64,000 nt of DNA from a candidate division WOR-3 bacterium (GTDB taxonomy: Bacteria; Hydrothermota; Hydrothermia; WGAB01), in assembly GCA_027069855.1 (NCBI GenBank), contig JALXEF010000048.1, positions 504 to 64,503 of the forward strand, given 5' to 3'. Under the pieces are notes generated by a model. The model saw only the letters and a list, made by a program, of their open reading frames with translations, was not told the DNA's origin and made no database searches. Of this stretch, positions 7,677-58,309 are shown piece after piece. Positions within the stretch are counted from its first letter, which is position 1. Each line of letters begins with the position of its first letter. A program made the position numbers and the translations under genes.

Positions 7677-7710
7677 AATTTTGCGAAACCGAACCTCGGA
7701 GGTCTCAATC

Positions 7711-13661: not shown

Positions 13662-15029
13662 ATGCAGTCCTGGCCCTTATTGCTCTTCGGCCTCTTCCTG
13701 CTCCTGACCCTGATCAACTATCGGTGGGGGCTGTACATCAGTCTGGCCTCGATCACCGGGTACATGCTGTTCCCCCACTTTGCCGGAGGTCCTCCCCTCC
13801 TCTGGCACGAACCCCTGGTGCCCTTTGTGTTCGTCATGTTCCTGTATGCCAAACGGGAAAAGATGGAGCCCGTCCTGGCTCTGAACCTGAAGGCGAACCC
13901 CATGCTGTATGCCACCGGCCTCTTCATGCTGGTGCTTGTGGGCCAGTACTTCCGGAACCCGGTGCTCACCTCCCGCCTGGGGGGCAGCGGCGGCTTCCTG
14001 CTCTTTTACCGCTTTGTGATTGACTTCCTGCTGATGATCATGGTGGCCGACGAGAGCATGCACCCCGAGGGCCGCCGCCGGATTTTCTGGAGCGTGCTGC
14101 TGGCCGCCTTACTCACCGCTGTCATCGGGGTGCTCGCCTACTACATTCCCTCGGTATACCTCTTCCTGGACCGTCTGGGGTTCACGGGCATCAAGGCCTG
14201 GCGGATCCTGGTGGACCCCCGAAGCGGTGTGGTCCGGTTCTTGATGCTGCAGATTCCGGCCTATTTCGGCCTGATCCTGATGGTTTTCAATCCCCTGGGG
14301 CTTCGGGGGCGATACCGGGTTCCCCTGGGCCTGTTCTTCGCCTTTGCCCTGCTGTTAAGCGGCGGCCGGGCCGTGTTCTGGGGCACCGTGCTTTCGCTGC
14401 TCCTCATCACGCTGTACCGGTACCGACGCCAGATGCTGGTGGTGGTGCTTGTGCTGGTGGGTTTCCTTCTGGTTTTCACCGCGGTTTCCCTTAATCCCGA
14501 GATCGTGCCCCCGGCGTACCGCCGGGTGTTCCGCATCACCGGCACGGAAAAGGAGATCTCCACGGTTCGGTTCTATGTGCACCGGCTGATGCTCAAGCAA
14601 ATCGCCCAGCACCCCATCCTCGGTGTGGGGTTCAAACCCGATGTCTTCATTCCGGAGTTCATCCCCCGGGAGGCCGCTTCGGAGTTCGTGCTCAAAAACC
14701 TGGCCGGAGGCGGCCACGGATCCTACTACTCGCTGCTCTACTTCTTTGGACTGGTGGGGTTTTTGCCCTACCTCTATGCCATCTGGCGGGCCCTCACGTT
14801 GCTGTGGGGCGCCCTCCAGAGCCGCGATCCGCCGGTGGTGCATCTGGCGCTCCTGTACCTGGCCTGGCTGGTGCCCACACTTACCATGTACTACGCCTTT
14901 TACCGCGGAGAGGCGCCGCAGCTCTTCTTCCTGTACGGCTTAATCAGCGGGTTGATCCTGGAGCAGAAGTATCGCGGGGCACCGGCAACCCGGGAGGCTC
15001 CGGCTACAGCCCGGTGGGCAGTTCAATGA
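13662..15029 (+). CDS. O-antigen ligase / Wzy-like polytopic membrane protein
   Basis: 455 aa with about 10-12 TM helices and a large loop region, typical of the Wzy_C/O-antigen polymerase-ligase superfamily. Confidence 0.6.
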   Translation: MQSWPLLLFGLFLLLTLINYRWGLYISLASITGYMLFPHFAGGPPLLWHEPLVPFVFVMFLYAKREKMEPVLALNLKANPMLYATGLFMLVLVGQYFRNPVLTSRLGGSGGFLLFYRFVIDFLLMIMVADESMHPEGRRRIFWSVLLAALLTAVIGVLAYYIPSVYLFLDRLGFTGIKAWRILVDPRSGVVRFLMLQIPAYFGLILMVFNPLGLRGRYRVPLGLFFAFALLLSGGRAVFWGTVLSLLLITLYRYRRQMLVVVLVLVGFLLVFTAVSLNPEIVPPAYRRVFRITGTEKEISTVRFYVHRLMLKQIAQHPILGVGFKPDVFIPEFIPREAASEFVLKNLAGGGHGSYYSLLYFFGLVGFLPYLYAIWRALTLLWGALQSRDPPVVHLALLYLAWLVPTLTMYYAFYRGEAPQLFFLYGLISGLILEQKYRGAPATREAPATARWAVQ

Positions 15030-24476: not shown

Positions 24477-26149
24477 TCGCCGTACACCCGGAGGATCTGG
24501 GTTTCCGGATAGTACTTCTCCACGATCTGGGCGGCACGGTAGCCTTCCCGGGCCATGCCGGCGGCCCCCACCTGACACAAACCCACGCCGTGGCCCGCGC
24601 CTCCACCCCGCAGCAGGATGGTGGTGGGAAGGCCGCCCAGGGACCGGATCAACTCTACCGTAAACAGGGAACTCTTCAGGGGTGGATTGCGTAAAACCCG
24701 GCGGATGCGGTACTGCCCCTCCAGCACCACCTCTCCCCGGGTCCCCACAATCTGAAGTTTGAGGATGCGGCCCGAAACACCCCGTTCCAGGGGCCGAATT
24801 GCGGTAATCTTCCCTACATCCACGCCGGTAAACCGCAGGATCCGACGCCGCACCTCCGCCGGGTCCAGGCGTACCCGCCAGCGGAAGTTGCGCTGCGCCT
24901 CCGGAGTGCGGGCGTTTTCCGGCCGGCCGTAGCACACCTCCGGCGGATGCTCCAGCCAATCGCGCACGGAAATCCTCAGGGGTTCCGAAGCGAACGGCTG
25001 CTCCGGCCCACAGAACACCCCCCGCAGGTACACCCGATCGTGGCCGAATACCTCCTTTGCCGACTCCGTGTGTCCTCCACAGCAGGAGTGGAACAGGGCC
25101 TCAATGGGTCGCCCCTGGTACACCACGATCTTTCCCCGGGTACTCCACACGGCCATGTCGGTTTGGTAGGTGTGGGTTTCCATATCGCCGTAGGCCTGGG
25201 CCGAGTAATCCCCGGGCAGGTCAAAGGGTTCCCAGAAGTTCCGGCCCCGGTCCCAGGCCCACAGGGCATAGGTGCGGGCCACGATGGCCTGGGCCTTGAG
25301 CGCCTCCATAGGATACGAAGGCGACATTTCCCGGGGCACCACGCCCTTCAGGTACTCCTCCAGGGGCAACTCGTTGATCACCAGAAGATTGGAATCGCTG
25401 GCCACCCGAAACTCCAGGATGCCCAAGAGATGCAGGTTCTGGGGCGTGGAGCTCACGAAACGGATCCCCGGGTGCACATTCAACAGCCGAAAGGTATGGT
25501 CCCCCTGCGGGGTAGGAATAAACCGAACCGGACTGGCACATCGCACCAACAGATTCCCCTGGGCGTCCAGTACCTCCAACCAGCCGGTAGCTTCACCCTT
25601 GGGAATCCAGAACACGGGATAGGGTTGCAGCAGGGTATCGCGTCGGATCACCTCCAGGCTGTCAAAGGGCCCCACAAAGAGGGCGTATTCCCGGGCATCC
25701 ACTTTGCCCCTGGGGAACCGAAAGGCTCGGCCCCAGTGTTCCACCCGCAGGGGGTATCCCCGGAGTTCCCAGGAGATCTTAAGGGCCACCGCCGAATCCA
25801 GCGAAAAGGTGGAACCCACCCACGCATAGGGTTCCCATTCGGGCGACAGCCCTTTCAAAAAGCGGATGTGGTAGTTTCCGGAGGCGCCCCGATACAGCAA
25901 CCCACTTCGGCTGAAGATGAAAAAAGAATCCGGTGCGTAAAGATCAAATGAGGAGGCGTAGGCGATGCCCACCCGAATCATGGGGGATTGATAAAATCGG
26001 GCCCTCCCCTGAGGCTTCAGGGCACCCCCTTCGGACTGCCTCCCTGCTGTTGGTGCTGTAGAACACCCGTACCAGACCAGGAGCGTTACGAAGAGAAGCC
26101 CTATGTTTTTCCAGGCGGGGCGTTTTCCCCACCCTGCTGTCTCCCTCAT
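24473..26149 (-). CDS. SpoIID/LytB-domain protein (peptidoglycan amidase enhancer family), lipoprotein
   Basis: 558 aa with lipobox YGCS. The central ...ALKAQAIVARTYAL...HSCCGGHTE...GHGVGLCQVGA stretch is diagnostic of SpoIID/LytB. Confidence 0.8.
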   Translation of the reverse strand: MRETAGWGKRPAWKNIGLLFVTLLVWYGCSTAPTAGRQSEGGALKPQGRARFYQSPMIRVGIAYASSFDLYAPDSFFIFSRSGLLYRGASGNYHIRFLKGLSPEWEPYAWVGSTFSLDSAVALKISWELRGYPLRVEHWGRAFRFPRGKVDAREYALFVGPFDSLEVIRRDTLLQPYPVFWIPKGEATGWLEVLDAQGNLLVRCASPVRFIPTPQGDHTFRLLNVHPGIRFVSSTPQNLHLLGILEFRVASDSNLLVINELPLEEYLKGVVPREMSPSYPMEALKAQAIVARTYALWAWDRGRNFWEPFDLPGDYSAQAYGDMETHTYQTDMAVWSTRGKIVVYQGRPIEALFHSCCGGHTESAKEVFGHDRVYLRGVFCGPEQPFASEPLRISVRDWLEHPPEVCYGRPENARTPEAQRNFRWRVRLDPAEVRRRILRFTGVDVGKITAIRPLERGVSGRILKLQIVGTRGEVVLEGQYRIRRVLRNPPLKSSLFTVELIRSLGGLPTTILLRGGGAGHGVGLCQVGAAGMAREGYRAAQIVEKYYPETQILRVYGD

Positions 26150-27081: not shown

Positions 27082-27737
27082 GATGACTTGAAGTCAAATC
27101 GGCGTTTTTCGGGCTCCGGGGACACCATTCCCCCGGAGATGATAACCTTCAAGCCTTCCTCAGGTGTTAAGTTCAGGGGAATCAGTTTCTTGCGGGGTAC
27201 CAACAGGTACCACCCCGAAGTGGGGTTCGGGGTGGTGGGCACGAACACGCTCACATACTCGCCCTCGGGCCCCTGCCAGGTCCGGTGGGAGGTGAGGAAC
27301 CCGATGGCATAGGTGCCCTCCACCGGAAACTCCACCAGCACCACCTCCCGGAAGGCCCGGCGATCGTCCAGAAAGGTTTCGGTGAGCTGCCGCGACGAGA
27401 TATAGATGCCCCGGATCAGGGGCACCCGCCGCAGGAACTGGTCGCTCCACTCCAGAAGCCGCCGGCCCACGGTTACGGAGGTCAGAAGCCCGATGAGATA
27501 GATGCCCACGAGCACCAGCAGAAAGGCCAGGGAGGTGAGCAGGAAATCCGGGAGCCGGCCCAGGCCCGGTATGACACGAAGGATCCCTGCCAGGAATCCC
27601 CCCACCTTGTCCACCACGAAGACCACCACGATCAGGGTGATCACCAGGGGGGTGAGGGCCACGAGCCCGGTAAGGAAGTAGCGGTTGACCTGCCGGAACG
27701 ACTCGGAAGACCACGGCGATCGGTCGGGTGCGTTCAT
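27078..27737 (-). CDS. DUF502-family membrane protein
   Basis: 219 aa. Two N-terminal TM helices and the conserved DUF502 core (PLIRGIYISSRQL...EGTYAIGFLT). ATGA-coupled to the CorC-like gene. Confidence 0.75.
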   Translation of the reverse strand: MNAPDRSPWSSESFRQVNRYFLTGLVALTPLVITLIVVVFVVDKVGGFLAGILRVIPGLGRLPDFLLTSLAFLLVLVGIYLIGLLTSVTVGRRLLEWSDQFLRRVPLIRGIYISSRQLTETFLDDRRAFREVVLVEFPVEGTYAIGFLTSHRTWQGPEGEYVSVFVPTTPNPTSGWYLLVPRKKLIPLNLTPEEGLKVIISGGMVSPEPEKRRFDFKSS

Positions 27738-27882
27738 CGTGGAACTTCCCTCCTACCGTGGGGATGGACTGTGGGGAACGCCGATCCTGGCAAGGGCTGA
27801 TCGCCTTGCCCGCCGGAAACCTCCTCCTGAAGCGCTGTCATGGCTCTTAAAACATAAGGGAAAACCCGGAAAAGGCAAGGGC

Positions 27883-29550
27883 CTACATCTTCTCCGGTGC
27901 CCGCACACCCATGAGGTCCAGGCCGTGGCGGATCACCCGCTGCACCGCCCGGGCCAGTGCCAGCCGCGCCCGGGTGCGCGCCAGATCCTCGCCTACGATC
28001 CGATGCTTCTGGTAAAAGGCGTGGAACCCTTCGGCAAGTTGCATCAGGGCGTAGGGCAGGCGATGTGGCTCGTGACGCTCGTGGACGTCCAGCAGCAGGT
28101 CGCCGAAGCCCGAAAGGAGCCGGAGCAGGTGCCGCTCCTCCGGGGTGGTCAGCAGCGCCAGGTCCGAGGGCTGCGCCGACCCCTGCACCCCCTTCTCGGC
28201 CGCATAGGCCATGAGGCTGTGGATCCGGGCGTGGACATACTGCACATAGTACACGGGGTTCTCGCTGGAGAGTTTCCGGGCCAGGTCCAGATCAAAGTCG
28301 AGGGGCGTGGAAATGCTGCGAAGCAGGAAGAAGAAGCGGGCCGCGTCCACGCCCACCTCCTGCACCAGATCGTGCAGGGTGTAGTACTCGCCCTTGCGCT
28401 TGGACATGCGCACCCGTTTGCCGCCCCGCAACAGGGTTACCTGCTGCACGATGAGCACCAGGAAGTTCTCGCCCGACACTTCGGGCCGGCCCAGACCCTC
28501 CCCCAGGAGGTCCAGCGCGATCTTCATGCGTTTCACATGGCCCAGATGGTCCGGGCCCCACAGGTCCACCAGCAGTTCGTAGCCCCGATCGAACTTGTAC
28601 AGGTGGTACGCCAGGTCATACAGGAAATAGGTGGGCCGACCGTCGGACCGAACGAGCACCCGGGGTTTGTCGTCGCCCCGCACCGTGGTGTCCAGGTACA
28701 GGGCCCCTTCCATCTCGCGGAGCACCTTCAGGCGGCGAAAGGCCTCCAGCACCTGCTGGGTATAGGCGAAGCGGCGGCCGATGTGGGGGTTCAGATCGCG
28801 GGGTTCCTCGGCCGGATCGTGGAACTCGGTTTCGTACACGATGTGGTCGAAGGTCACCCCGAAGGCCTGGAGTTCGGCCATCTGGTCGCGGAGGATGGCC
28901 TCGGCCACCCAGCGCGCCCGCTGGCCGTAGGGCAGATCCCGCACCTTTTCGGCATAGTGTTTGAGGTACGCGCCCAGATAACCGTCCTGGGGCGGCGTTT
29001 CCCGTTCGCCCAGGTGCCAGGCGATGCTCTCCTCCAAGGCCCGAATCTGGCCGCCGCCGTCGTTCACATAGTACTCGGCCTCCACCGGCGCCCCCAGCGA
29101 CCGGCCCACGCGCACCAGCGTGTCGCCCACCGAGGCGGCCCGGGCATTGGCCACATTCAAGGGCCCCGTGGGATTGGCCGACACGAACTCGATGAGCATC
29201 CGGCGCCCCTCGGCCACCCTCGGGAGCCAGGCCTCAAAATCGGCCAGCAACTGGGTCAACTGGTCCTGGAGCGCCTGATCGCTGAGCCGAAGGTTCAGAT
29301 AGCCGCGCTGGATCTCCACGGATTCCACCCAGGGGGCCAGTGCCTCCCGAACCCGGGGAGCCAGTTCCTGCAGAATCTCCTGGGGCGGTCGTTTCAGCGG
29401 CCGGGCGAGTTTGAAGCCGATGGGGGCGGCGAAATCTCCGAGATCGGGGTTGGGCGGTACCTCCAGGGCCACCTCCAGCGGCACCCCGAAGGTCTCCTGC
29501 ACCACCTGCTTCAGCCGATCCTCAAGCGTCCGTCGGATGGTCGGGCTCAT
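27883..29550 (-). CDS. argS: Arginine--tRNA ligase
   Basis: Class I aaRS. HIGH-like region (PTGPLNVANARA), KMSK-like SKRKG, and the C-terminal DALR anticodon-binding domain. Start set at MSPTI; an in-frame ATG at 29574 is possible. It overlaps the rsfS 3' end. Confidence 0.9.
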   Translation of the reverse strand: MSPTIRRTLEDRLKQVVQETFGVPLEVALEVPPNPDLGDFAAPIGFKLARPLKRPPQEILQELAPRVREALAPWVESVEIQRGYLNLRLSDQALQDQLTQLLADFEAWLPRVAEGRRMLIEFVSANPTGPLNVANARAASVGDTLVRVGRSLGAPVEAEYYVNDGGGQIRALEESIAWHLGERETPPQDGYLGAYLKHYAEKVRDLPYGQRARWVAEAILRDQMAELQAFGVTFDHIVYETEFHDPAEEPRDLNPHIGRRFAYTQQVLEAFRRLKVLREMEGALYLDTTVRGDDKPRVLVRSDGRPTYFLYDLAYHLYKFDRGYELLVDLWGPDHLGHVKRMKIALDLLGEGLGRPEVSGENFLVLIVQQVTLLRGGKRVRMSKRKGEYYTLHDLVQEVGVDAARFFFLLRSISTPLDFDLDLARKLSSENPVYYVQYVHARIHSLMAYAAEKGVQGSAQPSDLALLTTPEERHLLRLLSGFGDLLLDVHERHEPHRLPYALMQLAEGFHAFYQKHRIVGEDLARTRARLALARAVQRVIRHGLDLMGVRAPEKM

Positions 29551-29905
29551 CGGGGAGTTTCCAGGAGGGGACATCACCCCAAAGGGTTTCCAGGCTGTAG
29601 TAACTTCGGGTTTCCGGGCGAAATAGGTGTACGATGAGGTACTCAAAGTCCATCAGGATCCAGGTGCCGTGGTCGTAGCCCTCCACATGGTGCAGGGGCA
29701 GGCCGATCTCTTCCAGGGCCTCCTGGAGCCGATCGGCCATGGCCCGCAAATGTTCCGCCGTGTGGCCACTGGCGATCAGGAAAAAGTCAAAGAAGTTGGT
29801 TACCGGGCGGAGATCCAGGACCACCAGATCCCAGCCCTTCTTTTCCTGTACCGCGCGAATGGCCTCGCGCAATCCGGGGTCTTCAGGCAGTTTTTTGGGT
29901 GTCAT
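29522..29905 (-). CDS. rsfS: Ribosomal silencing factor (iojap family)
   Basis: 127 aa. GWDLVVLDL...FDFFLIASGHTAEHLRAMAD is characteristic of RsfS/iojap. Confidence 0.8.
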   Translation of the reverse strand: MTPKKLPEDPGLREAIRAVQEKKGWDLVVLDLRPVTNFFDFFLIASGHTAEHLRAMADRLQEALEEIGLPLHHVEGYDHGTWILMDFEYLIVHLFRPETRSYYSLETLWGDVPSWKLPDEPDHPTDA

Positions 29906-29932: not shown

Positions 29933-30118
29933 TCACTGGGAAGGCTCTCTGCCCCAGGTCGCCGATTCCCACACCACCCGGTCGGCGGTTTCTTCAGGAG
30001 CCTCCTCCTGTTGCAGTTCCAGGAGCTCCTGGAGAATGGCCAGTACCAGGTCCAGGTTCTCACCCTCCAGGGCCTCCACCAGAAGGTGGATCTTCTCCCG
30101 TTTCTGGGCATCGGTCAT
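29933..30118 (-). CDS. Hypothetical small helical protein (61 aa)
   Basis: ATG at 30118-30116 is ATGA-coupled to the stop of the upstream secreted protein. Acidic, helix-prone sequence (EKIHLLVEALEGENLDLVLAILQELLELQQEE). Confidence 0.4.
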   Translation of the reverse strand: MTDAQKREKIHLLVEALEGENLDLVLAILQELLELQQEEAPEETADRVVWESATWGREPSQ

Positions 30119-31026
30119 CGGACCACCACCTCCAGCATTTCATAACTGGGGCTACCCGTCAGGTAATGCGACTGAAACTTCATGGCGCCGGGCTGGAGGG
30201 GCAGGTACTTTTCAAAGTACCGCCGCAGTTCCTCCAGCCGGGGCTGCATGAGGAAGGTTTCTTTGGCATACAGGTGCACTTCCACCTGCTGGGGGTTGTG
30301 TTCCTTGACATGGTTCAAAAGGGCGGTCAGCACCGGCTCCGCCCCTGAGGAAAGCTCACTCCGACGGGGCTCAAACAAAAGCCCCAGGCTCACCCGCATA
30401 CGGTAATCGGTGCCGGTATCCAGGGCAAAGCCCTGTACCTTGAAGGGGGTGCCCACGAAGGACCGACGGGCTCCGTCCTTGGTTTCCACCACCAGGCGGT
30501 AACTATAGGGCTCCCCGGGCAGGATCCACTGCTGGGTGCCAAACCGACCGTCCCAGGTAACCGCATCCGGGGGCCTGCCGGTGCCCTCCAGGGTGGCCAC
30601 CCGCTCGCCCAGGGAGTTCACGATCTCCACCTTCCAGTGGGCGATGTCCTTGCGACGGATTTTGGGCAGGGGAATCCGAACCTGGCTCTGGATCACATCG
30701 CCTTCCACGGGCATCCGGATGTAGGGGCTATGGGACTTCACCGTCTGGTCAATGGCCCGTTCCACCACCTCCACCGACTGCACGGTGATCAGCCGTTCCT
30801 TGGCCTGGATCACGGAGTCCACCGGAGAAAAGGCGTTGGGGGTGATCTTGAGGGGAGGCTTTTTGGCGTCCTCAATCCGCAGTTCGGCCTTGGCCTTTAC
30901 CTCTTCTACACCGAGCTTCTGGTTGCCACCGGCCTGGCCCGTCGTATCCTGGCCCGCAGTATCCTGGGCCGCCAGAACTCCGAACAAGAACAGCAGCGCG
31001 AAAACTCTGGTCATTTTCATGGTCAA
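30115..31026 (-). CDS. Hypothetical secreted protein in the TonB/ExbBD cluster
   Basis: 303 aa with a signal peptide (MTMKMTRVFALLFLFGVLAAQ). The C-terminal ~90 aa are faintly OmpA/Pal-like, but this is weak. ATGA-coupled to tonB. Confidence 0.6.
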   Translation of the reverse strand: MTMKMTRVFALLFLFGVLAAQDTAGQDTTGQAGGNQKLGVEEVKAKAELRIEDAKKPPLKITPNAFSPVDSVIQAKERLITVQSVEVVERAIDQTVKSHSPYIRMPVEGDVIQSQVRIPLPKIRRKDIAHWKVEIVNSLGERVATLEGTGRPPDAVTWDGRFGTQQWILPGEPYSYRLVVETKDGARRSFVGTPFKVQGFALDTGTDYRMRVSLGLLFEPRRSELSSGAEPVLTALLNHVKEHNPQQVEVHLYAKETFLMQPRLEELRRYFEKYLPLQPGAMKFQSHYLTGSPSYEMLEVVVR

Positions 31027-32045
31027 TACTCCAGCACAAAGCGGAACACGATGGTTCCGGATTGTACCTCCTGCACCACATTGGCCGGCAGGGGGTCAAA
31101 GGACCAGCGAAGGGCGGCCCGCTTGGCCGCATTGTCCAGGTCAGGGTAGCCGCTGGACCGCACGATCACCACACTGGAAGGAATCACATTGCCCTGGGGA
31201 TCTACGGAAAGCCGGATCACCACCTCGCCTTCCCAGCCCATCCGCCGGGCGCGTTCGGGATAAATCGGCAGAACCCGCTTCCGAACCCGCTGGGCAATGT
31301 CACCGTGGATTTCCACCTTCGGAGCCTCTGGCTTGACAGCGGATTGCTCCACCGGCGCCGGAATCCTGGGCTTCTCCTTTTTCACCTGGATCTTGGCGGC
31401 CGCGGCCAGGCCCAGGGTTTCCTGCAGGGTGATGACGCCGCCACCTCCTCCGACGCCTCCACCCCCACCGAGGCCGATGCCACCGCCCTCGCCCAGGCCT
31501 CCGCCGCCGCTCTGCAGGTTGATGGTGGGTACCGGGGCCTCCTCCAGAATTTCCTCGGTGGACTTCTGTTTGCCGCTCACCCCGAGCACCACATCCACGG
31601 CCTCGCCCGGCAAACTGGGCTCCAGGTTCTCCACATCAATGGGGGCCTGGGTTTCCGCCAGTTCGGTTACCTTCTGGATGTCAATCTTCTCCACCGGCAC
31701 CTCCTGCTCCGGGATCAGGGCCTTTTTGTTCAGGGCCACCTTGATCTCCGGCTCTTCCAGGAGTTTGGGCTTTTGCACATTCTCCAGATTGATCCGCTTC
31801 TCCTCCAGGGGCTTGTTCTCCGGCCCCTTGGGCTTGGAGCGCTCCACCAATTTGCGGAGTTTGGGGGGCTTCTTGGGGTTCTTCTTGACCTCTTCCTCCA
31901 GGTACTGAATTTCCCGGAGGTTCGGGCGCGACAGCCGCTCGGGCAGCGGGCTGGTGACGAAAAAGCCAAAACTCAGGTGCACCAGCAGGGAAATCACTAG
32001 GCCGATGAGCAGATGGCGTTTTTCAGGAGGCAGATTGCTCCACAT
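31023..32045 (-). CDS. TonB-family energy transducer (TonB/TolA-like) with Gly-rich linker
   Basis: 340 aa. N-terminal TM anchor, a Lys/Pro/Glu-rich region, a Gly run (GGGGLGEGGGIGLGGGGGVGGGGG), then the TonB C-terminal domain (YPERARRMGWEGEVVIRLSVDPQGNV). Confidence 0.8.
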   Translation of the reverse strand: MWSNLPPEKRHLLIGLVISLLVHLSFGFFVTSPLPERLSRPNLREIQYLEEEVKKNPKKPPKLRKLVERSKPKGPENKPLEEKRINLENVQKPKLLEEPEIKVALNKKALIPEQEVPVEKIDIQKVTELAETQAPIDVENLEPSLPGEAVDVVLGVSGKQKSTEEILEEAPVPTINLQSGGGGLGEGGGIGLGGGGGVGGGGGVITLQETLGLAAAAKIQVKKEKPRIPAPVEQSAVKPEAPKVEIHGDIAQRVRKRVLPIYPERARRMGWEGEVVIRLSVDPQGNVIPSSVVIVRSSGYPDLDNAAKRAALRWSFDPLPANVVQEVQSGTIVFRFVLEY

Positions 32046-32563
32046 CAGGGTTGCTTCTCCTTCTCCCGAATGACCGCAAAGGCCACCCTTTGAGACTTGG
32101 CCTTCTTGGCGGCGTCCAGAGCCTTGAGCACGGTGCCGAAGGGCAAACTCTTGTCCGCACGGATGAGCACCAGCTTGGTGTACCAGAAGCTCGTATCCGG
32201 ATCCTGCCGATGGGCCCGCTCAATCACCCGATCCAGGGTGTCAAAGGTCACCTCCTGGTCGTTCACATACACCCGGGAGTCCTTGGTGATGGTCACGGCG
32301 ATGTTCTCTTCCAGTTCGGTTTCAATGCGGGTGGAACGGGGCACATCCACCTGGATCTTGGACTTGGAAAAGAGGTCCCGGGCCATGGCTACCAGCATCA
32401 ACAGGATCAGGAAGGAAACACCGGCCATGGGGAAGAGTTTGCCGCCGATGTCGATTTCCTCTTCGGAAACCATCCGCTCGATGCGGGGGCGGCGAAACCG
32501 AACCCGCCGGCGCTTCTCCGGCTCCTCAGGGGGCTGTTGCTGGACCTTGGGTTCCTCTGCCAT
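32045..32563 (-). CDS. exbD: Biopolymer transport protein ExbD/TolR (first copy, with a charged N-terminal extension)
   Basis: 172 aa. TM helix and the ExbD periplasmic domain (ITKDSRVYVNDQEVTFDTLDRVI...LIRADKSLPFGTVLKALDAAKKA). Confidence 0.8.
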   Translation of the reverse strand: MAEEPKVQQQPPEEPEKRRRVRFRRPRIERMVSEEEIDIGGKLFPMAGVSFLILLMLVAMARDLFSKSKIQVDVPRSTRIETELEENIAVTITKDSRVYVNDQEVTFDTLDRVIERAHRQDPDTSFWYTKLVLIRADKSLPFGTVLKALDAAKKAKSQRVAFAVIREKEKQP

Positions 32564-32565
32564 GG

Positions 32566-32991
32566 CTACGATTCCTTGCGTTTCAGGATCAGCACATCCT
32601 CGGCACCCAGGCTCTTCACCAGGTCAATCATCTTGATGACATCGTCGTAGATCACCTCGTTATCGGCCGAGAGGAGCACATTGCGGCTGATGCTGCGGGC
32701 CAGCAACTGGGGCAAAAGTTCCTTGAGTTGCTCCACGGTCACGGGTTCCTTGTTCAGGAAGATGGTACCGTCAGACCGCAGATAGAGGTTGACCTTGATG
32801 TCCTGTTTTTTGGCCTGCACCTTTTGGGCTGCCTTCCCCTTGGCCACGGCCGCCTTGGACACGAACAGGCCCGACTCGATGAGGAAGGGAATGGCCAGCA
32901 CGAACATCACCAGGAGCGACAGGGAGATGTCCACCATCGGCCCCAGGTTGATGTACGGCGGCTTGAGTTCAGCCCACCGGCGTCTTCTCAT
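32566..32991 (-). CDS. exbD: Biopolymer transport protein ExbD/TolR (second copy)
   Basis: 141 aa. INLGPMVDISLSLLVMFVLA followed by the ExbD periplasmic domain. Confidence 0.85.
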   Translation of the reverse strand: MRRRRWAELKPPYINLGPMVDISLSLLVMFVLAIPFLIESGLFVSKAAVAKGKAAQKVQAKKQDIKVNLYLRSDGTIFLNKEPVTVEQLKELLPQLLARSISRNVLLSADNEVIYDDVIKMIDLVKSLGAEDVLILKRKES

Positions 32992-33620
32992 TTCTTCCGA
33001 ACACCTGCCTTGTAGGAAATGATGAGGAGATCCCGGATCACCGCATCGGTTTTTGCCGAGATCTCCCCGGCCTTCCGGGCAAAGTAGTTATGGGCAATCA
33101 GCGTGGGGATTGCAATAAACAGCCCCACCATGGTGGTCAACAGGGCGATGGAGATCCCATGGCCCACCACCTCCGGTCCCCCCGAGCCGGTGATGGCGAT
33201 CTGGTGGAACGCGTCAATCAGGCCGGTGACCGTACCGTACAGGCCCAGGAGCGGCGACACGGCGGCCACCGTGGCCAGGCCGTTCAGGTACTTGGTGAGC
33301 TTTTCCCGTTCGCGGAGGATCTGGGCGTCCACCAGGCCCATCAACAGGTCCTCGCTCAGATCAAAGTTGTCCACGAACACCCGGAGCACGCGGTGGAACG
33401 GGGTATCTTTGGAGTAGGCCACCTGCCGAAGTCCGTCCAGGTCGCCCTTTTCCATCAGGTGATGGAGGGAATCCACGAGCTTGTCGATGTTGACCCGGTT
33501 CTTGAGGTAGTACCACAGGCGTTCAATGAAGAGCGCGAACCCGATAATGGAGGTGAGGGCCAGCAGCTGCATCTCGTACGAGCTCTTGGTCTTCAGGATG
33601 ATTTCCCTAAAGATCCACAT
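32988..33620 (-). CDS. exbB: MotA/TolQ/ExbB proton-channel protein
   Basis: 210 aa, 3 TM helices, conserved C-terminal region (GLIDAFHQIA...GISIALLTTMVGLFIAIP). Confidence 0.85.
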   Translation of the reverse strand: MWIFREIILKTKSSYEMQLLALTSIIGFALFIERLWYYLKNRVNIDKLVDSLHHLMEKGDLDGLRQVAYSKDTPFHRVLRVFVDNFDLSEDLLMGLVDAQILREREKLTKYLNGLATVAAVSPLLGLYGTVTGLIDAFHQIAITGSGGPEVVGHGISIALLTTMVGLFIAIPTLIAHNYFARKAGEISAKTDAVIRDLLIISYKAGVRKK

Positions 33621-33626
33621 TGCTCT

Positions 33627-36224
33627 TTATCCTCCTTGTCCTTGTTGGCCTTGAGAGGCTCCCGAAAGGGAGCGGATTTTCTGTTCCAGTTGTTGCTTGA
33701 TGGCGGGGTCCGGGGCCAGCTTGTAGGCGTACTGATAAAACTGGATCGCCTGGTCGGCCTGGCCCTTCCTCGCCATCTCGTCGCCGGCCAGTGTGTAGTA
33801 CTGTACGGCCTTCTTCAACTCGCCCAGCTCCTCATAGGCCGAGGCGATAAAGGTAATGGCCTTGTCGCGGAAGGGGCCTTCCTTTTCCGAAAGTGGCTGG
33901 AGCACCGCAATGGCGTCCCGGTACTGCTGGGCTTTGAAGTACGCCAGACCCAGGAAGTAGGCCGCGGTGTCGGCGCCGGGCCGATCGCCGAAGAAGGAGA
34001 GGTACTTCTTCAGAGGCACGATGGCGTCCGGGTACTTCTTCAGTTTGTAAAGGATCTGGCCTGCCACCAGCAGGGCCACCGGGGCCTTGTCGTTCTTGGG
34101 ATGATTCACCGCAAAGGTCAGGAAGGCGTTGGCCGCCTCCTCCTGCTGCCCGGCCTGGAATAGATCCACGGCCCGGGCGTACTCGGCCTCCGCCGCCAGT
34201 TCCGAGGTGGGAAACTTATTCAGGAACTCCTGCAGGGCCTGCGGATCTTCTTCAGAAAGCCGGTAATAGGCGTACTGCATGAGTTCCTTGGCCTGGGAGG
34301 CCAGGTCGCTTTCGGGATACAGGCTCAGGAATTTCTCAAACTCCTCAATGGCCTTGCGGTACTGGTGCAGGTTGTAGTAGTTCTGGGCCAGCATGTACTG
34401 GGCCTGGGCAGCCAGGTGATGCCCGGGGAAGTGCTCCAGCAACCAGGTTAGGAGGGTGTTGGACTTGTCGTACTTGCCGGCCCGACGGTAAATGTCGGCC
34501 GCCCGATAGGCGGCGTCGGCCGCCCGGGGATGATCCGGGTAGGTGGACACCACCTTTTCCCAGGCCACCAGGGCGTCGCCGTAGCTCCGCAGGGCACTGG
34601 CCGCCAGGCCCTGGAAGTACAGGAGATCCGGCAGCACATCGTGGGCCTCGGGGAAGGTTTTGACCACCGCCGCAAAGTCGGCGTAGGCGTCCCGGTACTT
34701 GCCCTCGTTGAACTTGGCCACGCCCATGCCGTAGTAGGCGGCAATGATGAGGTTCGTGTCGCTGGCAGCGGCCCCGAGGGTGGCCATAGCGTTGAGGAGG
34801 GCGATGGCCTCCTCGTTACGGTTCTCGTGGACATAACACCAGCCCAGGCCCACATTGGCCCGGGTGATCAGCAAACGCTCCTGGGCGTTCTGCGAAACCT
34901 GGGTATACAACCCCTCGGCAATGGAGTAGTTGTCCTGGTAGTAGTTGGCTTCGGCGAGCTCCAGGCGGAACCAGTCGCCCCAGCGGCTGGTGGCCCCTTC
35001 AAACTCCGAGCGCATCAGGTTGCCAAAGGTCAGGGCCCGATCCCACTCGCCGTTGCGGGCCATGGCCACCAGGGCCATGGTGACTGCCGGCAGGGAGAAG
35101 GGCGAGTTGGTGTAGCGCTCCACCAGGTCCTGGAACCGGAAGGCGGCGTCCTGATAGTTGCCGGTCTGGAAGGAAATGGCCCCATACACATAGTCGCCGA
35201 TGCCGTTGAGGTCTTCCAGGATAAAGAGCTTCTGCAGTTGCTGGGCCGTCAGGTAGGCCTGGTCCAGGTTCCCCATGCGCAGGAACACCTCGGCCAGGCG
35301 GATGAAGGTGATGGCCGAGATCAGCACATTGTCGGCGTTGGCCCGGGCCATCTGGTAATAGGTCAACGCCTCCTCCGGCTTGTTGAGTTCCAGTTTGATG
35401 TTGCCGGCAAAATAGGCCGCATAGGGGGCAAACTCAAAGTTCTTTCGGTTCAGCAGATCGGTGAAGTTCTCCAGCGCCTTGGTGTAATCCCTCAAGTAGT
35501 AGTAGGCGAGGCCCAGGTAGAGCTGCACATGGTCGCGGAGGGGATAGTTGGCCGGGTGGGTTTCCAGGAAGCTGGTGGCTTCGTTCACCACCCCCTTGTA
35601 GTCGCCGGAGTTGAAAAGGGTTTCAATGAGCCCGTAGATCACCAGAAAGTCCAGCTGGGTGCCCTGGAACTCCGGATAGAGCTCCTTGTAAAGTGCCAGG
35701 GCATCCAGAGGGTGCCCTGTGAGGTTGTAAATGCGGGCGAGCAGCACCTTGGCCAGGGGGTCCTCAATGCCCTGGAGTTTTTCCAGGGCCTCCTCCAGTT
35801 TGTTCATCCGATAATAGAGCAAGCCCTGGCCCAACCGCACCCGGGGCGTGCCCCGGTAATTGGGGTTCTGCTCCAGGGCGAGGAAGGTGGATTCGGCCCG
35901 CTGGAGATCCCCCTTCAACAGGGTAGCAAACCCCAGGAGCAACTGAACTTCAGGCTCCAGGTAGGTTCCCTGTACCCTGGCGAGGAGCTTCGGGGCCTCG
36001 CGGATGACCCGCTCGTAGTTTCCCTGATTGAGTTCACATTCCAGAACTCGGAAAGCCATCTCGTTCCGGTATTCAGGGAGCTTCTTTTCCAGGTTCCGAT
36101 AGATCTTCTCCGCTTCGCCGTACTTTCCCTGCTGGAAGTACGCCTCAGCCTTTTGGAAGTCCGGGCTCCAGTTTCCTCCAACCAAGAGAAAAACAAGGAT
36201 CGGGATCATCGTGCTCATGATCAC
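33627..36224 (-). CDS. Large tetratricopeptide-repeat (TPR) protein, secreted/periplasmic
   Basis: 865 aa. N-terminal hydrophobic segment, then more than 15 TPR-like units (recurring A..Y..G.Y..A...F). First gene upstream of exbB in the same run. Confidence 0.8.
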
Positions 36225-37126
36225 CTATTATATGGGGCTTTTTTGGTGTCCGGCTCGGCCCAGCCGAGTTTCCTCCGAAGCACATCATAGAAGCCGGGAA
36301 CGCCGGGCAACCGCACCATCTTTACAGTTTCGCTTCCCCGTTTTACCTGCACTTCCTCGTCGGAGGCCAGTTCGGTTTGCTCCTGGCCGTCCGCCGAGAG
36401 CAGAATGCCCACGCCGCGGCCCCGGGCCCGTACCCGCACCTGCCCTGAAGCCGGCAGAATCACAGGGCGCACGGAGAGGGTGTGGGCACAGATCGGGGTG
36501 ACCAGCATCACCTCCAGTTCCGGGTACACGATGGGGCCGCCTGCTGCCAGATTGTAAGCGGTGGAGCCGGTAGGGGTGGAGATGATGACGCCGTCGGCCT
36601 TGTATTCGCCCAAAAACTCCTGGTTGTACCACACCCGGATGTGGACCAGTCGGGCCGCGCCGGTGGCCGTGATCACCATGTCGTTCAGGGCGGTGAACAC
36701 CCGGCCCCGGTGTTCCACCTCCAGGGTCATCCGGGGTTCCAGGGTGTAGTCGCCCTGCCGCAGCGCCTCCACGATCCGGGGGATTTCCTGGGGCGTGTAA
36801 ACGGTCAGGAACCCCAGCCCTCCCAGGTTGATGCCCAGGACCGGTTTCCCCTGGGCCAGGCGGGCCGCCCGCAGGAAGGTGCCGTCGCCGCCGAGGGCCA
36901 GGATCACATCGGCCTCCTGGGCCAGCGCCTCGTCGGGTACCACCCGGTCCACACCGGGGTGCGCGAGTTCCTGGTCCGTGGCGGTCAAAAGAAGCGGTGC
37001 GGGCGCCCGCTTTCGGAGTTCCTCCAGGGTCGCCCGCACCTGCGGACGTTTCACATTCAGCACCACCCCGATGTGCTGCAGCGGGGGGCTCAGGCTTTGG
37101 GTTTGCGTCGTTTCAGGCCCTCCCAT
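36221..37126 (-). CDS. nadK: NAD(+) kinase
   Basis: GGDGTFL and NDMV...[23 protein letters not shown] motifs. The start is uncertain: the ORF-track ATG overlaps secF by 37 nt and the conserved core begins near HIGVVLN. Confidence 0.85.
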
Positions 37127-39746: not shown

Positions 39747-40778
39747 ATGTCCGTAAAGCGCTTGGTTCTATGGGGAAGCCTTCTCTTACTTCCCGGTTCC
39801 CGGATGCTGGCCTCGGCAACTGAAGCTGGAGGGGTGTTCCTCACCATTTTCCCGGGTGCCCGCGCTGCGGGTATGGCGGCCGCCTTTTCCGCAGTCGCCG
39901 ACGACCCCACAGCCAGCTACTACAATCCCGGAGGGATGGCCTTCTTTAAGGAAACCCAGGTTTCCCTGGTACACGCCCCCTGGCTGCCTGCCCTTGCAAA
40001 GGACATGTACTACGAGTTCCTGGGGTTTGTTCATCCGCTGCAGCAGGGGGTGATCGGTGGGCACATCATTTACCTTAACCTGGGCAATGTGGATGCCTAT
40101 GACGAAAACGGCAACTACATCGGCTCCTGGCGGCCCGCCGATTACGCGTTCACCCTTTCCTACGCCTTCCAGGCCAACCCTCGCCTGGGGGTAGGGTTTT
40201 CCGGCAAACTGATCCGCAGTTTCCTGGCGCCCCCAGAGGTCTTAAAGGTGGTGCTGGGCGAACCCGGGGGCGGCAACGCCGTAACCTTCGCCCTGGGGGC
40301 CGGAGTGTACTACAAAACCGCGGTCCCGGGGCTGACCCTGGCGGCGGTGCTGGACAACCTCGGCCCCGGCCTGAAGTACACGGGGTCCGGAAAACGTGAA
40401 GACCTCCCGTATCTCCTGCGCCTCGGCGTGGCGTATCGCCCCATCTGGACCGATGTCCACAAGGTGACGGTCGCCGTGGATGTCAACAAGGTGCTCGTGA
40501 AACTGGACGATGACCTCCGGGAGAGGGGAATGTCCTATGTGCTTCGGGAGGCCTTCAAGCATGTGGGGCTGGAATACACCCTGCTGGACATGATCTCGGT
40601 CCGCGCAGGCTACTTCTACGATGTGGAAGGGGCCCGAACCGGATACACCTTCGGCCTCGGATTCCGCGCGGGCCCCCTGCAACTGGATTACGGCAACGAC
40701 TCCGACATTTACGAGTTCCAGCGGCGCGGCGATCCCCATAACCAGCGGTTCTCCCTCACCTATATCATGCGGCGGTAA
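39747..40778 (+). CDS. Outer-membrane beta-barrel protein with FadL/PorV-like N-terminal motif
   Basis: 343 aa. Signal peptide, then GARAAGMAAAFSAVADDPTASYYNPGGMAF, which resembles the conserved N-terminal strand of FadL/TodX and PorV/PorP-SprF families. Alternating amphipathic strands and a C-terminal aromatic-rich end. RBS GGAGG. Confidence 0.7.
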   Translation: MSVKRLVLWGSLLLLPGSRMLASATEAGGVFLTIFPGARAAGMAAAFSAVADDPTASYYNPGGMAFFKETQVSLVHAPWLPALAKDMYYEFLGFVHPLQQGVIGGHIIYLNLGNVDAYDENGNYIGSWRPADYAFTLSYAFQANPRLGVGFSGKLIRSFLAPPEVLKVVLGEPGGGNAVTFALGAGVYYKTAVPGLTLAAVLDNLGPGLKYTGSGKREDLPYLLRLGVAYRPIWTDVHKVTVAVDVNKVLVKLDDDLRERGMSYVLREAFKHVGLEYTLLDMISVRAGYFYDVEGARTGYTFGLGFRAGPLQLDYGNDSDIYEFQRRGDPHNQRFSLTYIMRR

Positions 40779-40803: not shown

Positions 40804-41349
40804 GTGGCAACCCTGTTCCTGTGGCTGTGGCTTGCAAGCACACCGGTTCCCGATGATTGGGAGGCGGTGAACCGGGCCCTTGCAGCGGCCCTGGAACAGG
40901 TTTCCCTGGATCTTCCCGAAACCCTCCTGCTCCAACCCCAGGTGGCCGGAGAACCCCACCAGTGGGTGTTGGAACCCCTGCTGCACCGACATCTGCAGGA
41001 AACCCGGCACCGGATCCTGGCTCCGGCCCCCCGGGTCCTGGAGTTCCGCCCCCTGCAGGTCCGCATCCAGAAACACCGCATCGGCTGGTGGCACCAGCAG
41101 GTGGAACGCCGGGTGGTGCTGAAACTCTGGCTCGGGCTCCGGGATCCGGCCAGCGGCACCTACCTGTGGCAACAAACCCTCCGGGGCACCTACCGGGATA
41201 CCTTTCCCCTGGCCCTGGAACCTGAAACCCGGGTGGAGGGCCTCTCCCCCACCCTCCAGGACCGCCGGACCCTCTGGCGTGACCTTGCGGCCACCCTGGC
41301 CGTGAGCGGCCTGGTGTTTCTCTTGTACTCAGGAGGACATGGACCATGA
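40804..41349 (+). CDS. Hypothetical protein with N-terminal signal peptide and C-terminal hydrophobic segment
   Basis: About 181 aa, probably GTG-initiated. No recognisable domain. Its stop overlaps the ileS start. Confidence 0.4.
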   Translation: MATLFLWLWLASTPVPDDWEAVNRALAAALEQVSLDLPETLLLQPQVAGEPHQWVLEPLLHRHLQETRHRILAPAPRVLEFRPLQVRIQKHRIGWWHQQVERRVVLKLWLGLRDPASGTYLWQQTLRGTYRDTFPLALEPETRVEGLSPTLQDRRTLWRDLAATLAVSGLVFLLYSGGHGP

Positions 41350-52766: not shown

Positions 52767-52790
52767 TCCGCCTTTCCGGGCCATAGGCTT

Positions 52791-52820
52791 GCTGCGGGGC
52801 CCTGCATTGGGCCCCGCAGC
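52791..52820 (+). promoter_or_regulatory. Perfect 12-bp GC-rich hairpin (GCTGCGGGGCCC-tgcatt-GGGCCCCGCAGC) between the octaheme cytochrome and beta-barrel genes
   Basis: Read directly from the sequence; followed by CGTTTAAACG and then the RBS AAAGGAGG of the next gene. Candidate partial terminator or mRNA-processing/stability element setting operon stoichiometry. Confidence 0.4.
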
Positions 52821-52848
52821 CGTTTAAACGCTCCAAAGGAGGCTTGTT

Positions 52849-54018: not shown

Positions 54019-54021
54019 GCC

Positions 54022-58307: not shown

Positions 58308-58309
58308 GG

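Follow-up and report, generated by a model that had tools for sequence, protein, structure and literature searches.

A recurrent Ton-type operon with an Ig- and OmpA-like partner gene, possibly encoding a trans-envelope module

A cluster of motor genes in the 64-kb stretch of DNA analysed here (the window) raises the question of whether it encodes a Tol-like envelope system, an ordinary Ton system or a module of another kind. A sequence-only reading had described six genes, encoding a TPR protein, ExbB, two ExbDs, a TonB-family protein and a secreted protein, as resembling Tol-Pal more than a TonB system, and had offered a gliding or secretion-energising role as an alternative. An ORF check of the window confirms this unit and its boundaries, with all of its ORFs on the minus strand (Table 1) in the transcription order TPR, ExbB, ExbD, ExbD, TonB and secreted OmpA-like protein (OmpAL). 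The interpretation given to the unit is only partly supported, as described below.

Table 1. Features of the operon and of a nearby barrel gene, in window coordinates
Feature	Coordinates	Strand	Remarks
TPR protein	33627-36224	-	many TPR Pfam families
ExbB	32988-33620	-	210 aa; PF01618, 98 bits
ExbD-1	32566-32991	-	141 aa; PF02472, 73 bits
ExbD-2	32045-32563	-	172 aa; PF02472, 67 bits
TonB-family transducer	31023-32045	-	340 aa; PF03544, 67 bits; TIGR01352, 72 bits
OmpAL (secreted Ig-like + OmpA-like protein)	30115-31026	-	no match to family models
Small acidic ORF	29933-30118	-	61 aa; ATGA overlap with OmpAL gene
PorV/PorQ-family barrel gene	39747-40778	+	343 aa; NF033709 PorV_fam, 216 bits

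The six genes form a genuine, tightly packed and co-directional operon, set among housekeeping genes (secDF, the NAD kinase gene, rsfS and argS). Junctions read from the sequence show that tight coupling spans 7-8 genes. The NAD kinase and TPR genes are separated by 2 nt, or overlap as GTGA with an alternative start, and a 6-nt gap lies between the TPR and ExbB genes. The exbB stop overlaps the exbD1 start as ATGA, while the exbB start overlaps nothing. A 2-nt gap separates the two ExbD genes, the ExbD-2 and TonB genes share 1 nt (TGATG), and the TonB and OmpAL genes are 2 nt apart or overlap as TTGA with an alternative start. The 6-nt gap and the 1-nt overlap do not fit the earlier description of every junction as ATGA or 2 nt. 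The TPR protein has 865 aa when read from GTG; the ATG at 36218, which public gene calls use and which is probably the true start, gives 863 aa. OmpAL has 303 aa when read from TTG, and its ATG at 31020 gives 301 aa.

The transducer carries S19xxxH23 in its transmembrane (TM) helix, and SxxxH is present in 27/35 of its relatives. An alignment of 5-7 lineages identifies the conserved motif LREIQYLEE after this helix, followed by a segment rich in Lys, Pro and Glu, and the further conserved motifs IDVENLEPSLPGEAVDVV and KSTEEILEE (before the Gly run). The Gly-rich run that had been singled out in this protein does exist, but it comprises 26 residues including 19 Gly (residues 180-205, DNA 31431-31508) rather than 24, and it is not a family-wide feature, since a strong run occurs in only 6 of the 35 relatives. 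A TonB_C domain with a YP motif occupies residues ~255-340; a PDB search with this C-terminal domain (CTD) returns only TonB or HasB chains, and the protein scores 29 bits against tolA_full, below the cut-off of 59.45.

ExbB is equidistant from TolQ (57 bits) and ExbB (56 bits) among PDB matches. Its two pore threonines correspond in the alignment to T145 and T178 of TolQ, Ile takes the place of the conserved Glu (E173 in TolQ), and the protein is presumed to form a pentameric stator ring. The two ExbDs are indeed consecutive, and both score higher against ExbD than against TolR in the PDB. Among NCBIfam models, tolQ and tolR score best for ExbB and the ExbDs, though far under cut-off. The motor and transducer are Ton-type, not Tol-type, contrary to the Tol-Pal resemblance proposed earlier.

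ExbD-1 aligns to the Serratia and E. coli ExbD structures (HMMER) and retains the TM proton-binding Asp (D21, motif PMVDISL), which we take to correspond to D25 of E. coli ExbD and D23 of TolR. This Asp, or an equivalent, is conserved among relatives, and it is found together with the other motor-coupling motifs, namely SxxxH, the post-TM motif and the ExbB Thr pair. The TM helix of ExbD-2 has no acidic residue, with Gly48 at the Asp position (motif PMAGVSF). The same loss (to G, C, A or N) is seen in four related loci (L010, L011, L013 and L016), and metagenomic ExbD-2 proteins lack the Asp in 6/27 cases and retain it in 21/27. The proton-binding Asp of ExbD-2 has been lost in the subclade of the window. 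A highly charged N-terminal extension of 30 aa had been assigned to the first ExbD; this cytoplasmic tail (~40 residues) belongs to the second in transcription order, and it is restricted to the window clade. Only when the genes are counted along the plus strand does the tailed one precede the other.

OmpAL yields no match to Pfam or NCBIfam, and its family is annotated publicly only as "hypothetical" (in WOR-3, Hydrothermae and Desantisbacteria MAGs). Behind an SPase-I type signal without Cys lies a low-confidence N-region that holds the conserved motif EEVKAKAELRIEDAKKP at residues 39-55 (across the family, I/V41 in 45/45, K54 in 39/45 and P55 in 32/45). A FlgD_ig-like Ig domain (~110-200) and an OmpA-like domain (~205-301) follow. 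The sequence-only reading had suggested examining this protein for a Pal/OmpA domain, and the OmpA-like fold was found, although the protein is not Pal because it is not a lipoprotein; a lipobox-like sequence occurs in only 2/47 family members. The OmpA-like domain is probably peptidoglycan-associated, but binding is uncertain because the canonical loop is missing (the peptidoglycan-binding loop is ~7 residues shorter) and the Asp/Arg pair is only partly conserved. The OmpA-like domains of DotK/LphA and YiaD type differ in that they belong to lipoproteins of other systems, with neither an Ig domain nor TonB linkage. At its N-terminus the TPR protein carries a hydrophobic signal or anchor without a lipobox, and it scores 113 bits against the BamD model. 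Its match to NCBIfam TIGR02795 (tol_pal_ybgF; 198 bits in 5 stretches, above cut-off) lends support to the Tol-like side of the earlier interpretation.

The six-gene block is kept amid four different flanking-gene sets, one of them in a WOR-3 MAG, with 24-31% identity between the last proteins. TPR orthologues (833-870 aa, 30-53% identity) lie directly upstream of exbB in L010, L011, L013 and L016. A metagenomic set of 47 OmpAL loci (14 clusters at at least 50% identity; GC 0.30-0.77) was also assembled. Upstream of OmpAL in these loci are TonB (35/35), ExbD-2 (18/19), ExbD-1 (15/15), ExbB (12/12), the TPR gene (6/6 of those with enough upstream DNA) and a PorV-like-Ig barrel (3/3 to 5/5). ExbD-ExbD-TonB-OmpAL is also found without an adjoining ExbB or TPR gene, and in one locus (L014) the TonB-OmpAL pair stands by itself. 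Recurrence of this order in distant relatives with different flanks and in the 47 metagenomic loci puts it far beyond what chance would produce. The gene set recurs in many uncultured bacteria and, as far as we found, has no earlier description in the literature.

In most relatives the operon starts with genes for an Ig-tailed protein of surface type and a barrel of the PorV/PorQ family, and in ~19 loci the barrel gene is followed directly by the TPR gene. The PorV-family barrel directly upstream of the TPR gene in these other lineages carries a C-terminal FlgD_ig domain that is similar to the Ig domain of OmpAL (E ~1e-8). The operon of the window clade contains neither the Ig-tailed barrel nor the Ig-repeat protein. 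A PorV-family gene without an Ig tail is located 3.5 kb upstream of the window operon and is divergent from it. This gene exceeds the NF033709 cut-off (90) and falls below that of the T9SS PorV equivalog (144 versus 250); it scores only 20-45 bits against the operon barrels of other lineages, to which it is not demonstrably orthologous by sequence. A link between this gene and the motor module is possible.

Building on the observed gene set, domains, motifs and synteny, we tentatively favour the view that the operon encodes a dedicated Ton-derived trans-envelope module, rather than stray Ton genes. In the inner membrane, an ExbB pentamer with an ExbD-1/ExbD-2 pair would make up a 5:2 motor driven by protons, and in the window subclade this stator pair would be an asymmetric heterodimer because ExbD-1 alone bears the proton-binding Asp. 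The motor would engage the transducer at its SxxxH TM helix and at its post-membrane 'motor box', and the TonB_C domain of the transducer would act on the obligate neighbour, periplasmic OmpAL, which is composed of the conserved N-terminal strand/helix motif, the Ig domain and the OmpA-like domain that is probably peptidoglycan-associated. The ~860-aa TPR protein may serve as an assembly scaffold. At the outer-membrane end, most lineages would use the PorV/PorQ-type barrel with the Ig domain of OmpAL, which follows an Ig-repeat protein sharing this Ig tail. We infer from this proposed chain of motor, transducer, OmpAL and barrel that the module would work like Tol-Pal or the Agl-Glt core, transmitting the proton motive force via Ton-type parts to a partner linked to the wall and outer membrane.

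Units of TPR, TolQ-like, two TolR-like and transducer proteins have precedents (PMC12204202, PMC3169522) that support the dedicated-module reading. The Agl-Glt core of Myxococcus, with relatives in Gammaproteobacteria and Fibrobacter, comprises aglRQS and gltD, E, G and C (PMC3169522). It shares with the module a TolQ-like protein, two heterologous TolR-like proteins, a TonB_C transducer, TPR proteins and outer-membrane partners. However, its GltG has a cytoplasmic FHA domain, it has several TPR proteins rather than one, it lacks the Ig-OmpA-like partner and the PorV-type barrel, and sequence similarity is marginal (myxo_SS_tail, 18.6 bits). PVC-group clusters described in 2025 (PMC12204202) follow the same operon logic and order, with a TPR gene, one TolQ-like gene and two different TolR-like genes before a 'force transducer' with an SHLS helix; the transducer head there is vWA rather than TonB_C, and no OmpA-like or PorV-like partner is reported.

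An alternative that we consider unlikely is an ordinary Ton system of the housekeeping kind, which would energise conventional TonB-dependent transporters encoded elsewhere, with the TPR and OmpA-like proteins as accessories for wall anchoring or complex stabilisation, like TtpB, TtpC and TtpD of the Vibrio TonB2 system. The CTD, as a plain TonB_C domain carrying the YP motif, could simply serve such transporters, and the ExbD-like ExbDs and housekeeping surroundings agree with this explanation. The pairing of two ExbDs with one ExbB is ordinary in Ton operons of Bacteroidota and Xanthomonas, where exbB-exbD-exbD-tonB occurs in the same order with Ton-type affinities (a comparison of composition and order). 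The Riemerella anatipestifer TonB2 operon of this kind is needed for hemin uptake (PMC4446302), and a TPR protein is described as essential in the Vibrio TonB2 system (PMC6957404). The window module differs in having the ~860-aa TPR gene before and the Ig + OmpA-like gene always after, with a PorV-type barrel gene leading in most lineages, an ExbD-2 without the essential Asp in the window subclade, and no associated iron or hemin genes seen. OmpAL is coupled to TonB in every assessable locus, including one where the two genes stand alone, and this points to a dedicated partner more than to a general-purpose accessory. The sharing of the OmpAL Ig domain by the operon barrel of most lineages also counts against this explanation, as does the loss of the essential Asp from ExbD-2. 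Likewise, no TonB-dependent receptor gene, a check raised by the earlier reading, is present among the large ORFs of the window (all scanned or publicly annotated) or in the annotated flanks of the inspected relatives.

The same searches found no TolB, as had been claimed, and no Pal. Their local absence, the OmpA-like fold, the YbgF/CpoB match and the tolQ and tolR top rows would suit a functional replacement of Tol-Pal in outer-membrane tethering and constriction at division, with the TonB-like protein in the role of TolA, OmpAL standing in for Pal/TolB in soluble form and the TPR protein corresponding to CpoB. Non-proteobacterial TolA is reported to be practically indistinguishable from TonB and recognisable tol-pal to be missing in Bacteroidetes, and PorE (TPR + propeller + Ig + OmpA) is proposed as a fused substitute (PMC12204202). 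The module also resembles Tol-Pal (TolQ-TolR-TolA-TolB-Pal-CpoB) in its proposed 5:2 motor, its membrane-anchored SxxxH-helix transducer, its probably wall-associated OmpA-like partner and its YbgF-like TPR protein in a single operon. We nevertheless consider replacement improbable: there is no TolB-like propeller, the CTD is TonB-type, all Tol equivalog models (tolA_full, tolQ, tolR) are under cut-off, and OmpAL lacks a lipid anchor, has a truncated peptidoglycan-binding loop and adds an Ig domain. Tol-Pal likewise does not include an Ig-repeat protein of surface type or a barrel of PorV type, which are present in the operon. PorE of the type IX secretion system (T9SS; PG1058) is a single lipoprotein with a beta-propeller, whereas here the TPR and Ig-OmpA proteins are separate, non-lipidated and encoded with the motor (PorE model, 28 bits versus a cut-off of 600). 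Some support exists for the gliding or secretion-energising alternative, in which the Ig-tailed surface protein would be exported, anchored or moved by the motor, with the PorV/PorQ-type barrel as conduit or platform, much as adhesins are moved by Agl-Glt or GldLM. A FlgD_ig/CTD-like domain closes the Big_1-repeat proteins that stand first in the operon, small proteins match Por_Secre_tail, CHU_C, PorZ and PorU C-termini, the operon barrels of two lineages score 94-104 bits against NF033709, and the Agl-Glt core is assembled from the same components, namely TolQ, two TolR, TPR proteins and a TonB-like protein (PMC3169522). This explanation seems very doubtful, however, as neither the Ig-tailed barrel nor the Ig-repeat protein is encoded in the window clade operon, CTD-model scores are at or under cut-off, the AgmX/PglI tail model reaches only 18.6 bits (cut-off 40), and no T9SS core genes were seen adjoining the module.

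The 61-aa ORF that overlaps the end of the OmpAL gene is publicly called as a gene and has no family match. Conserved copies occur in L008, L009 and L010 (E 4e-10 to 5e-25); the ORF is missing from L011, L013 and L016, and it is possibly a seventh operon member in the window clade only.

The module is encoded by seven closely packed minus-strand genes running from position 36224 to 29933. Five of these were assigned and confirmed with Pfam and NCBIfam, and the remaining two, encoding the secreted Ig-like and OmpA-like protein (hereafter OmpAL) and a 61-aa protein, match no family in either database. Of the six junctions from the TPR gene to the 61-aa ORF, the first is a gap of 6 nt, the third and fifth are gaps of 2 nt, the second and sixth are ATGA overlaps, and at the fourth the genes overlap by 1 nt. 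The sequence-only reading of the operon was correct for six genes but erred in three details: not all junctions are ATGA overlaps or 2-nt gaps, the charged N-terminal extension is carried by the ExbD that is second rather than first in transcription order, and the Gly run of the TonB-family protein spans 26 residues (19 of them Gly) instead of 24. The 61-aa ORF, which overlaps the OmpAL stop codon, is an annotated gene in public contigs; it is kept in the relatives' loci L008-L010 and is missing where the operon copy is more distant. Upstream lie secDF and then the NAD kinase gene, whose end is separated from the TPR start by 2 nt. The NAD kinase gene shares 37 nt with secF, identically in public gene calls, and is thus tightly enclosed by secDF and the TPR gene, all of them transcribed in the same direction. 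Scans for promoters and terminators yielded no signal exceeding shuffles, and the window holds no tRNAs and no Rfam family, so that no riboswitch points to regulation. Four plus-strand ORFs antisense to argS or operon genes were rejected as high-GC artefacts, with GC3 below that of the sense genes.

In the closer relatives L009 and L010 the entire locus is syntenic, and in the loci L011/L012, L013 (WOR-3) and L016 the TPR-ExbB-ExbD-ExbD-TonB-OmpAL block recurs amid wholly different flanking genes, with OmpAL identities of 24-31%. One further contig retains the TonB-OmpAL pair alone, and another carries barrel-ExbD-ExbD-TonB-OmpAL. To scan metagenomes, the Ig domain was turned into a degenerate DNA pattern, which is unique in the window, and the ORFs of 120 retrieved loci were classified by HMMs built from the module proteins. 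A full OmpAL-type gene is present in 47 loci (14 clusters at ≥50% identity; locus GC 0.30-0.77). Where the DNA extends far enough, its same-strand upstream neighbours include TonB_C (35/35), ExbD-2 (18/19), ExbD-1 (15/15), ExbB (12/12) and TPR (6/6) genes, and a PorV-like barrel gene lies upstream in three of three metagenomic loci, or five of five under a looser distance limit. The parts and their motifs are read directly from these loci, as is their invariable co-occurrence. The synteny counts exclude chance juxtaposition, and the gene set is a unit.

An exhaustive profile search recovered 938 OmpAL relatives, comprising full-length members of ~300 aa and large multi-Ig proteins. Word-indexed searches with the 301-aa protein, a 45-member profile or ExbD-2 returned close relatives only, and a related-locus search with a narrow alignment returned three MAG contigs; it was the exhaustive profile search, not word-indexed searching, that revealed the family. 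Every named member is annotated as 'hypothetical protein', in MAGs of candidate division WOR-3, Ca. Hydrothermae and Ca. Desantisbacteria. An AF2 model of OmpAL built with seven homologues has pLDDT values of about 90 over residues 110-301, and residues 1-106 are of low confidence. When 45 full-length members were compared with Pfam, FlgD_ig was matched in 13 and OmpA weakly in 4. By sequence, the family profile matched OmpA-like chains in the PDB (DotK, 1.6e-5; YiaD, 5.6e-5; Pal, about 0.01). The OmpA-like fold for which the sequence-only reading had proposed a search is thus present. However, the signal peptide has neither a Cys nor a lipobox (a lipobox-like sequence occurs in just 2 of 47 relatives), and in alignments the family is about 7 residues short of the canonical peptidoglycan-binding loop GHTD..G....N..LS..RA. 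Canonical PF00691 domains have a beta-alpha-beta-alpha-beta-beta fold and, in this loop, a conserved Asp and Arg; of the 45 family members, 30 retain the Arg and roughly half have an acidic residue. As judged from its sequence, OmpAL is a soluble Ig plus OmpA-like protein and not Pal, and binding of peptidoglycan by its OmpA-like domain is plausible. A family-wide motif (EEVKAKAELRIEDAKKP in the window, LTVEGEDR-type in high-GC relatives) resides in the poorly modelled N-terminal region. The TonB-box-like segment ERLITVQ, which lies downstream of this motif, was dropped as a candidate TonB contact because its conservation is confined to the close clade.

ExbB (PF01618, 98 bits) keeps both pore threonines, with those of YGTVTG and ALLTT aligning with TolQ T145 and T178. 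The transmembrane proton-binding Asp of ExbD, otherwise essential, is preserved in ExbD-1 (D21 in PMVDISL, aligned to ExbD D25), and ExbD-2 has Gly48 at this position in a helix with no acidic residue. At this position ExbD-2 also has G, C, A or N in L010, L011, L013 and L016; among 27 metagenomic ExbD-2 proteins the Asp is likewise lost in 6 and kept in 21, so that its loss is a subclade trait. This distribution constitutes a natural experiment on whether a 5:2 stator requires both of its Asp residues. The TonB-family protein carries an SxxxH helix (S19-L-L-V-H23; SxxxH in 27 of 35 relatives) and a conserved post-membrane motif, LREIQYLEE, located where the 'motor box' of TonB and TolA has been described (PMC12204202). 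Its C-terminal TonB_C domain contains a YP motif (PIYP), scores 67 bits with PF03544 and 72 bits with TIGR01352, and matches only TonB or HasB structures in the PDB. The linker combines conserved motifs, a mixed Lys/Glu/Pro composition and the Gly run. A Pro-rich rigid spacer is not found in the window protein, and its relatives have at most 6 Pro in any stretch of 14 residues and no Pro-rich runs. A strong Gly run occurs in only 6 of 35 relatives and is best interpreted as a spacer that is flexible and variable. A single-sequence AF2 prediction of the TonB protein alone was uninformative (mean pLDDT 48).

In other lineages, a PorV/PorQ-family barrel gene lies directly upstream of the TPR gene; in three lineages its product scores 44, 94 and 104 bits with NF033709 (cut-off 90). 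The C-terminal FlgD_ig domain of this barrel resembles the OmpAL Ig domain (E about 1e-8), and about 19 Ig-tailed barrel genes have a TPR gene immediately downstream. Seven loci additionally encode, upstream of the barrel, a Big_1-repeat protein of 570-1070 aa with a C-terminal Ig domain of the same kind, which is possibly surface cargo or a partner of the module. In other loci a small protein upstream of the barrel matches Por_Secre_tail, CHU_C and PorZ/PorU C-terminal models. One subclade has a conserved probable lipoprotein gene in this place, without a family match. The operon of the window clade includes neither an Ig-tailed barrel gene nor an Ig-repeat gene. A gene of the PorV/PorQ family whose product lacks an Ig tail is located 3.5 kb upstream of the operon on the other strand (family model 216 bits versus a cut-off of 90), and is followed, just before ileS, by a gene for a 181-aa protein. 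Because the PorV-family protein scores just 20-45 bits against the module barrels, we claim no orthology and rejected it as the module barrel.

Features of the window and of relatives' loci or contigs (L numbers; coordinates are those of the entry named)
Feature	Coordinates	Strand	Description
TPR protein		-	865 aa from GTG; 863 aa from ATG of public gene calls
ExbB		-	210 aa; Pfam/NCBIfam
ExbD-1		-	141 aa; Pfam/NCBIfam
ExbD-2		-	172 aa; Pfam/NCBIfam
ExbD-2 Gly48 codon	32420-32422	-	at Asp position
TonB-family protein		-	340 aa; Pfam/NCBIfam
OmpAL	30115-31026	-	secreted, 301/303 aa by start codon; no Pfam or NCBIfam match
Small ORF	29933-30118	-	61 aa, acidic, looks helical (MTDAQKREKIHLLVEALEGENLDL...); no family match
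secF/NAD kinase overlap	37090-37126		37 nt
PorV/PorQ-family gene	39747-40778	+	no Ig tail
181-aa protein	40804-41349	+	no family match
Rejected ORFs	27685-29637, 31062-32000, 33090-34163, 34530-36290	+	antisense to argS/operon genes
Loci with Asp-less ExbD-2	L010, L011, L013, L016, L022, L034, L036, L044, L108, L122
Big_1-repeat proteins	L022 7915-9633; L034 12549-14309; L054 14-2074; L070 11612-14821; L092 11-2608; L106 2987-6136; L136 1781-4816		FlgD_ig/CTD-like end; directly 5' of barrel
Probable lipoprotein	L011 1350-1862; L047 520-1026; L087 1280-1792; L044 9144-9752		~170 aa; lipobox ...GACS/GCSS...; 5' of barrel gene
Wza-like protein	22017-24476	+	Poly_export/SLBB, 819 aa
Wzy_C protein	13662-15029	+
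Poly_export-Wzz-flippase cluster	L016 10500-15791		next to the operon
SpoIID-domain proteins	24473-26149, 61133-62569	-
Multihaem cytochrome cluster	51696-54825	+	Cytochrom_c3_2, cytochrome c7, MtrC/MtrF-like domain
M16 peptidase pair	7591-10307	+	insulinase-type, tandem
M16 peptidase pair	57009-59608	-	insulinase-type, tandem

To our knowledge, 5:2 proton motors with TonB- or TolA-like transducers provide the sole energy route to the outer membrane, and we know of only three such systems, Ton, Tol-Pal and Agl-Glt, that are understood to any degree. The sequence-only reading had likened the arrangement to Tol-Pal, and the absence of TolB that it noted was borne out, since no TolB beta-propeller gene occurs in the operon, the window or the relatives' copies of the operon. 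Its suggestion of Tol-like motor parts was not. All NCBIfam Tol equivalog models score under their cut-offs (tolQ, 95 versus 221; tolR, 50 and 45 versus 127; tolA_full, 29 versus 59.45), both ExbDs score higher as ExbD than as TolR, and ExbB is equidistant to TolQ and ExbB. Going by these scores, the module parts are Ton-type. The TPR protein exceeds the cut-off of the CpoB/YbgF TPR model TIGR02795 (198 bits versus 90.1), but does so with five repeated stretches across its 865 aa, and it reaches 58 versus 383 with the full-length CpoB model. There is also no Pal gene within the 64-kb window. A strict replacement of Tol-Pal is improbable. An ordinary Ton system in which the other proteins are accessories would account for the plain TonB_C domain. 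Cognate TonB-dependent transporters have a 22-strand barrel, a plug and a TonB box, and no genes for such receptors were found in the window or in the relatives' annotated flanks. Two ExbDs with one ExbB are ordinary in Bacteroidota, where exbB-exbD-exbD-tonB2 serves hemin uptake (PMC4446302). We consider the ordinary Ton explanation somewhat unlikely, although it has this precedent.

The Agl-Glt core consists of AglR, AglQ/AglS, GltG (FHA plus TonB_C) and the TPR proteins GltD, GltE and GltC. Its part list is analogous to that of the module, which lacks an FHA domain, and in a comparison by model scores the AgmX/PglI tail model reaches 18.6 versus a cut-off of 40. The layout, TPR plus TolQ-like plus two different TolR-like proteins plus transducer, is the same in the Agl-Glt core (PMC3169522) and in clusters of PVC bacteria with vWA transducers reported in 2025 (PMC12204202). 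These likenesses are consistent with a Ton-built machine that may work like Tol-Pal or the Agl-Glt core complex, a reading that we favour at slightly less than even chances. The PorV/PorQ-family gene of the window suggests a T9SS-type envelope in this organism, and PorE is a single lipoprotein with TPR, Ig and OmpA domains that has been proposed to tether the outer membrane to peptidoglycan (PMC12204202). The window gene nevertheless scores below the T9SS PorV equivalog NF033710 (144 versus 250), and a T9SS- or gliding-type energiser of an Ig-tailed surface protein is very unlikely.

For the Ton-built machine, we infer that the ExbB5/ExbD-1-ExbD-2 motor would engage the helix and motor box of TonB, whose C-terminal domain or linker might contact the conserved N-terminal motif of OmpAL, on the model of TonB boxes and the N-terminus of TolB. 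The OmpA-like domain would associate with peptidoglycan, Ig domains could connect this adaptor to the PorV-type barrel, and the TPR protein may be the scaffold of the assembly. More doubtfully, the module might represent a new and, among uncultured bacteria, widespread class of trans-envelope machine that depends on TonB. Here TonB would pull on a soluble Ig plus OmpA-like adaptor rather than open a 22-strand plug-barrel transporter. This adaptor would connect peptidoglycan to a PorV/FadL-type barrel of 14 strands that has the same Ig domain, a giant TPR scaffold would be part of the machine, and in the window subclade the 5:2 stator would be obligately asymmetric, pairing an Asp-bearing with an Asp-less ExbD. 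Literature searches found no description of an obligate TonB/Ig-OmpA-like pair, an operon-head PorV-type barrel with the same Ig domain, or an Asp-less ExbD-2. If true, a Ton-type motor with such an adaptor, scaffold and barrel would be a further output device of this motor class. Its hosts are WOR-3, Hydrothermae, Desantisbacteria and soil or sediment bacteria, for which we found no Tol-Pal survey in the literature, and the module gives a name and context to a protein family of hundreds of members annotated as 'hypothetical'.

Other genes of the window were also recorded. Wza-like and Wzy_C genes lie 6-16 kb from the operon, and in L016 the operon adjoins a polysaccharide-export cluster; this proximity may be coincidence. 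Two SpoIID-domain proteins are encoded in this seemingly diderm, non-sporulating lineage. M16 peptidase genes form two separate tandem pairs, and a 389-aa gene without a family match sits amid the multihaem cytochrome genes.
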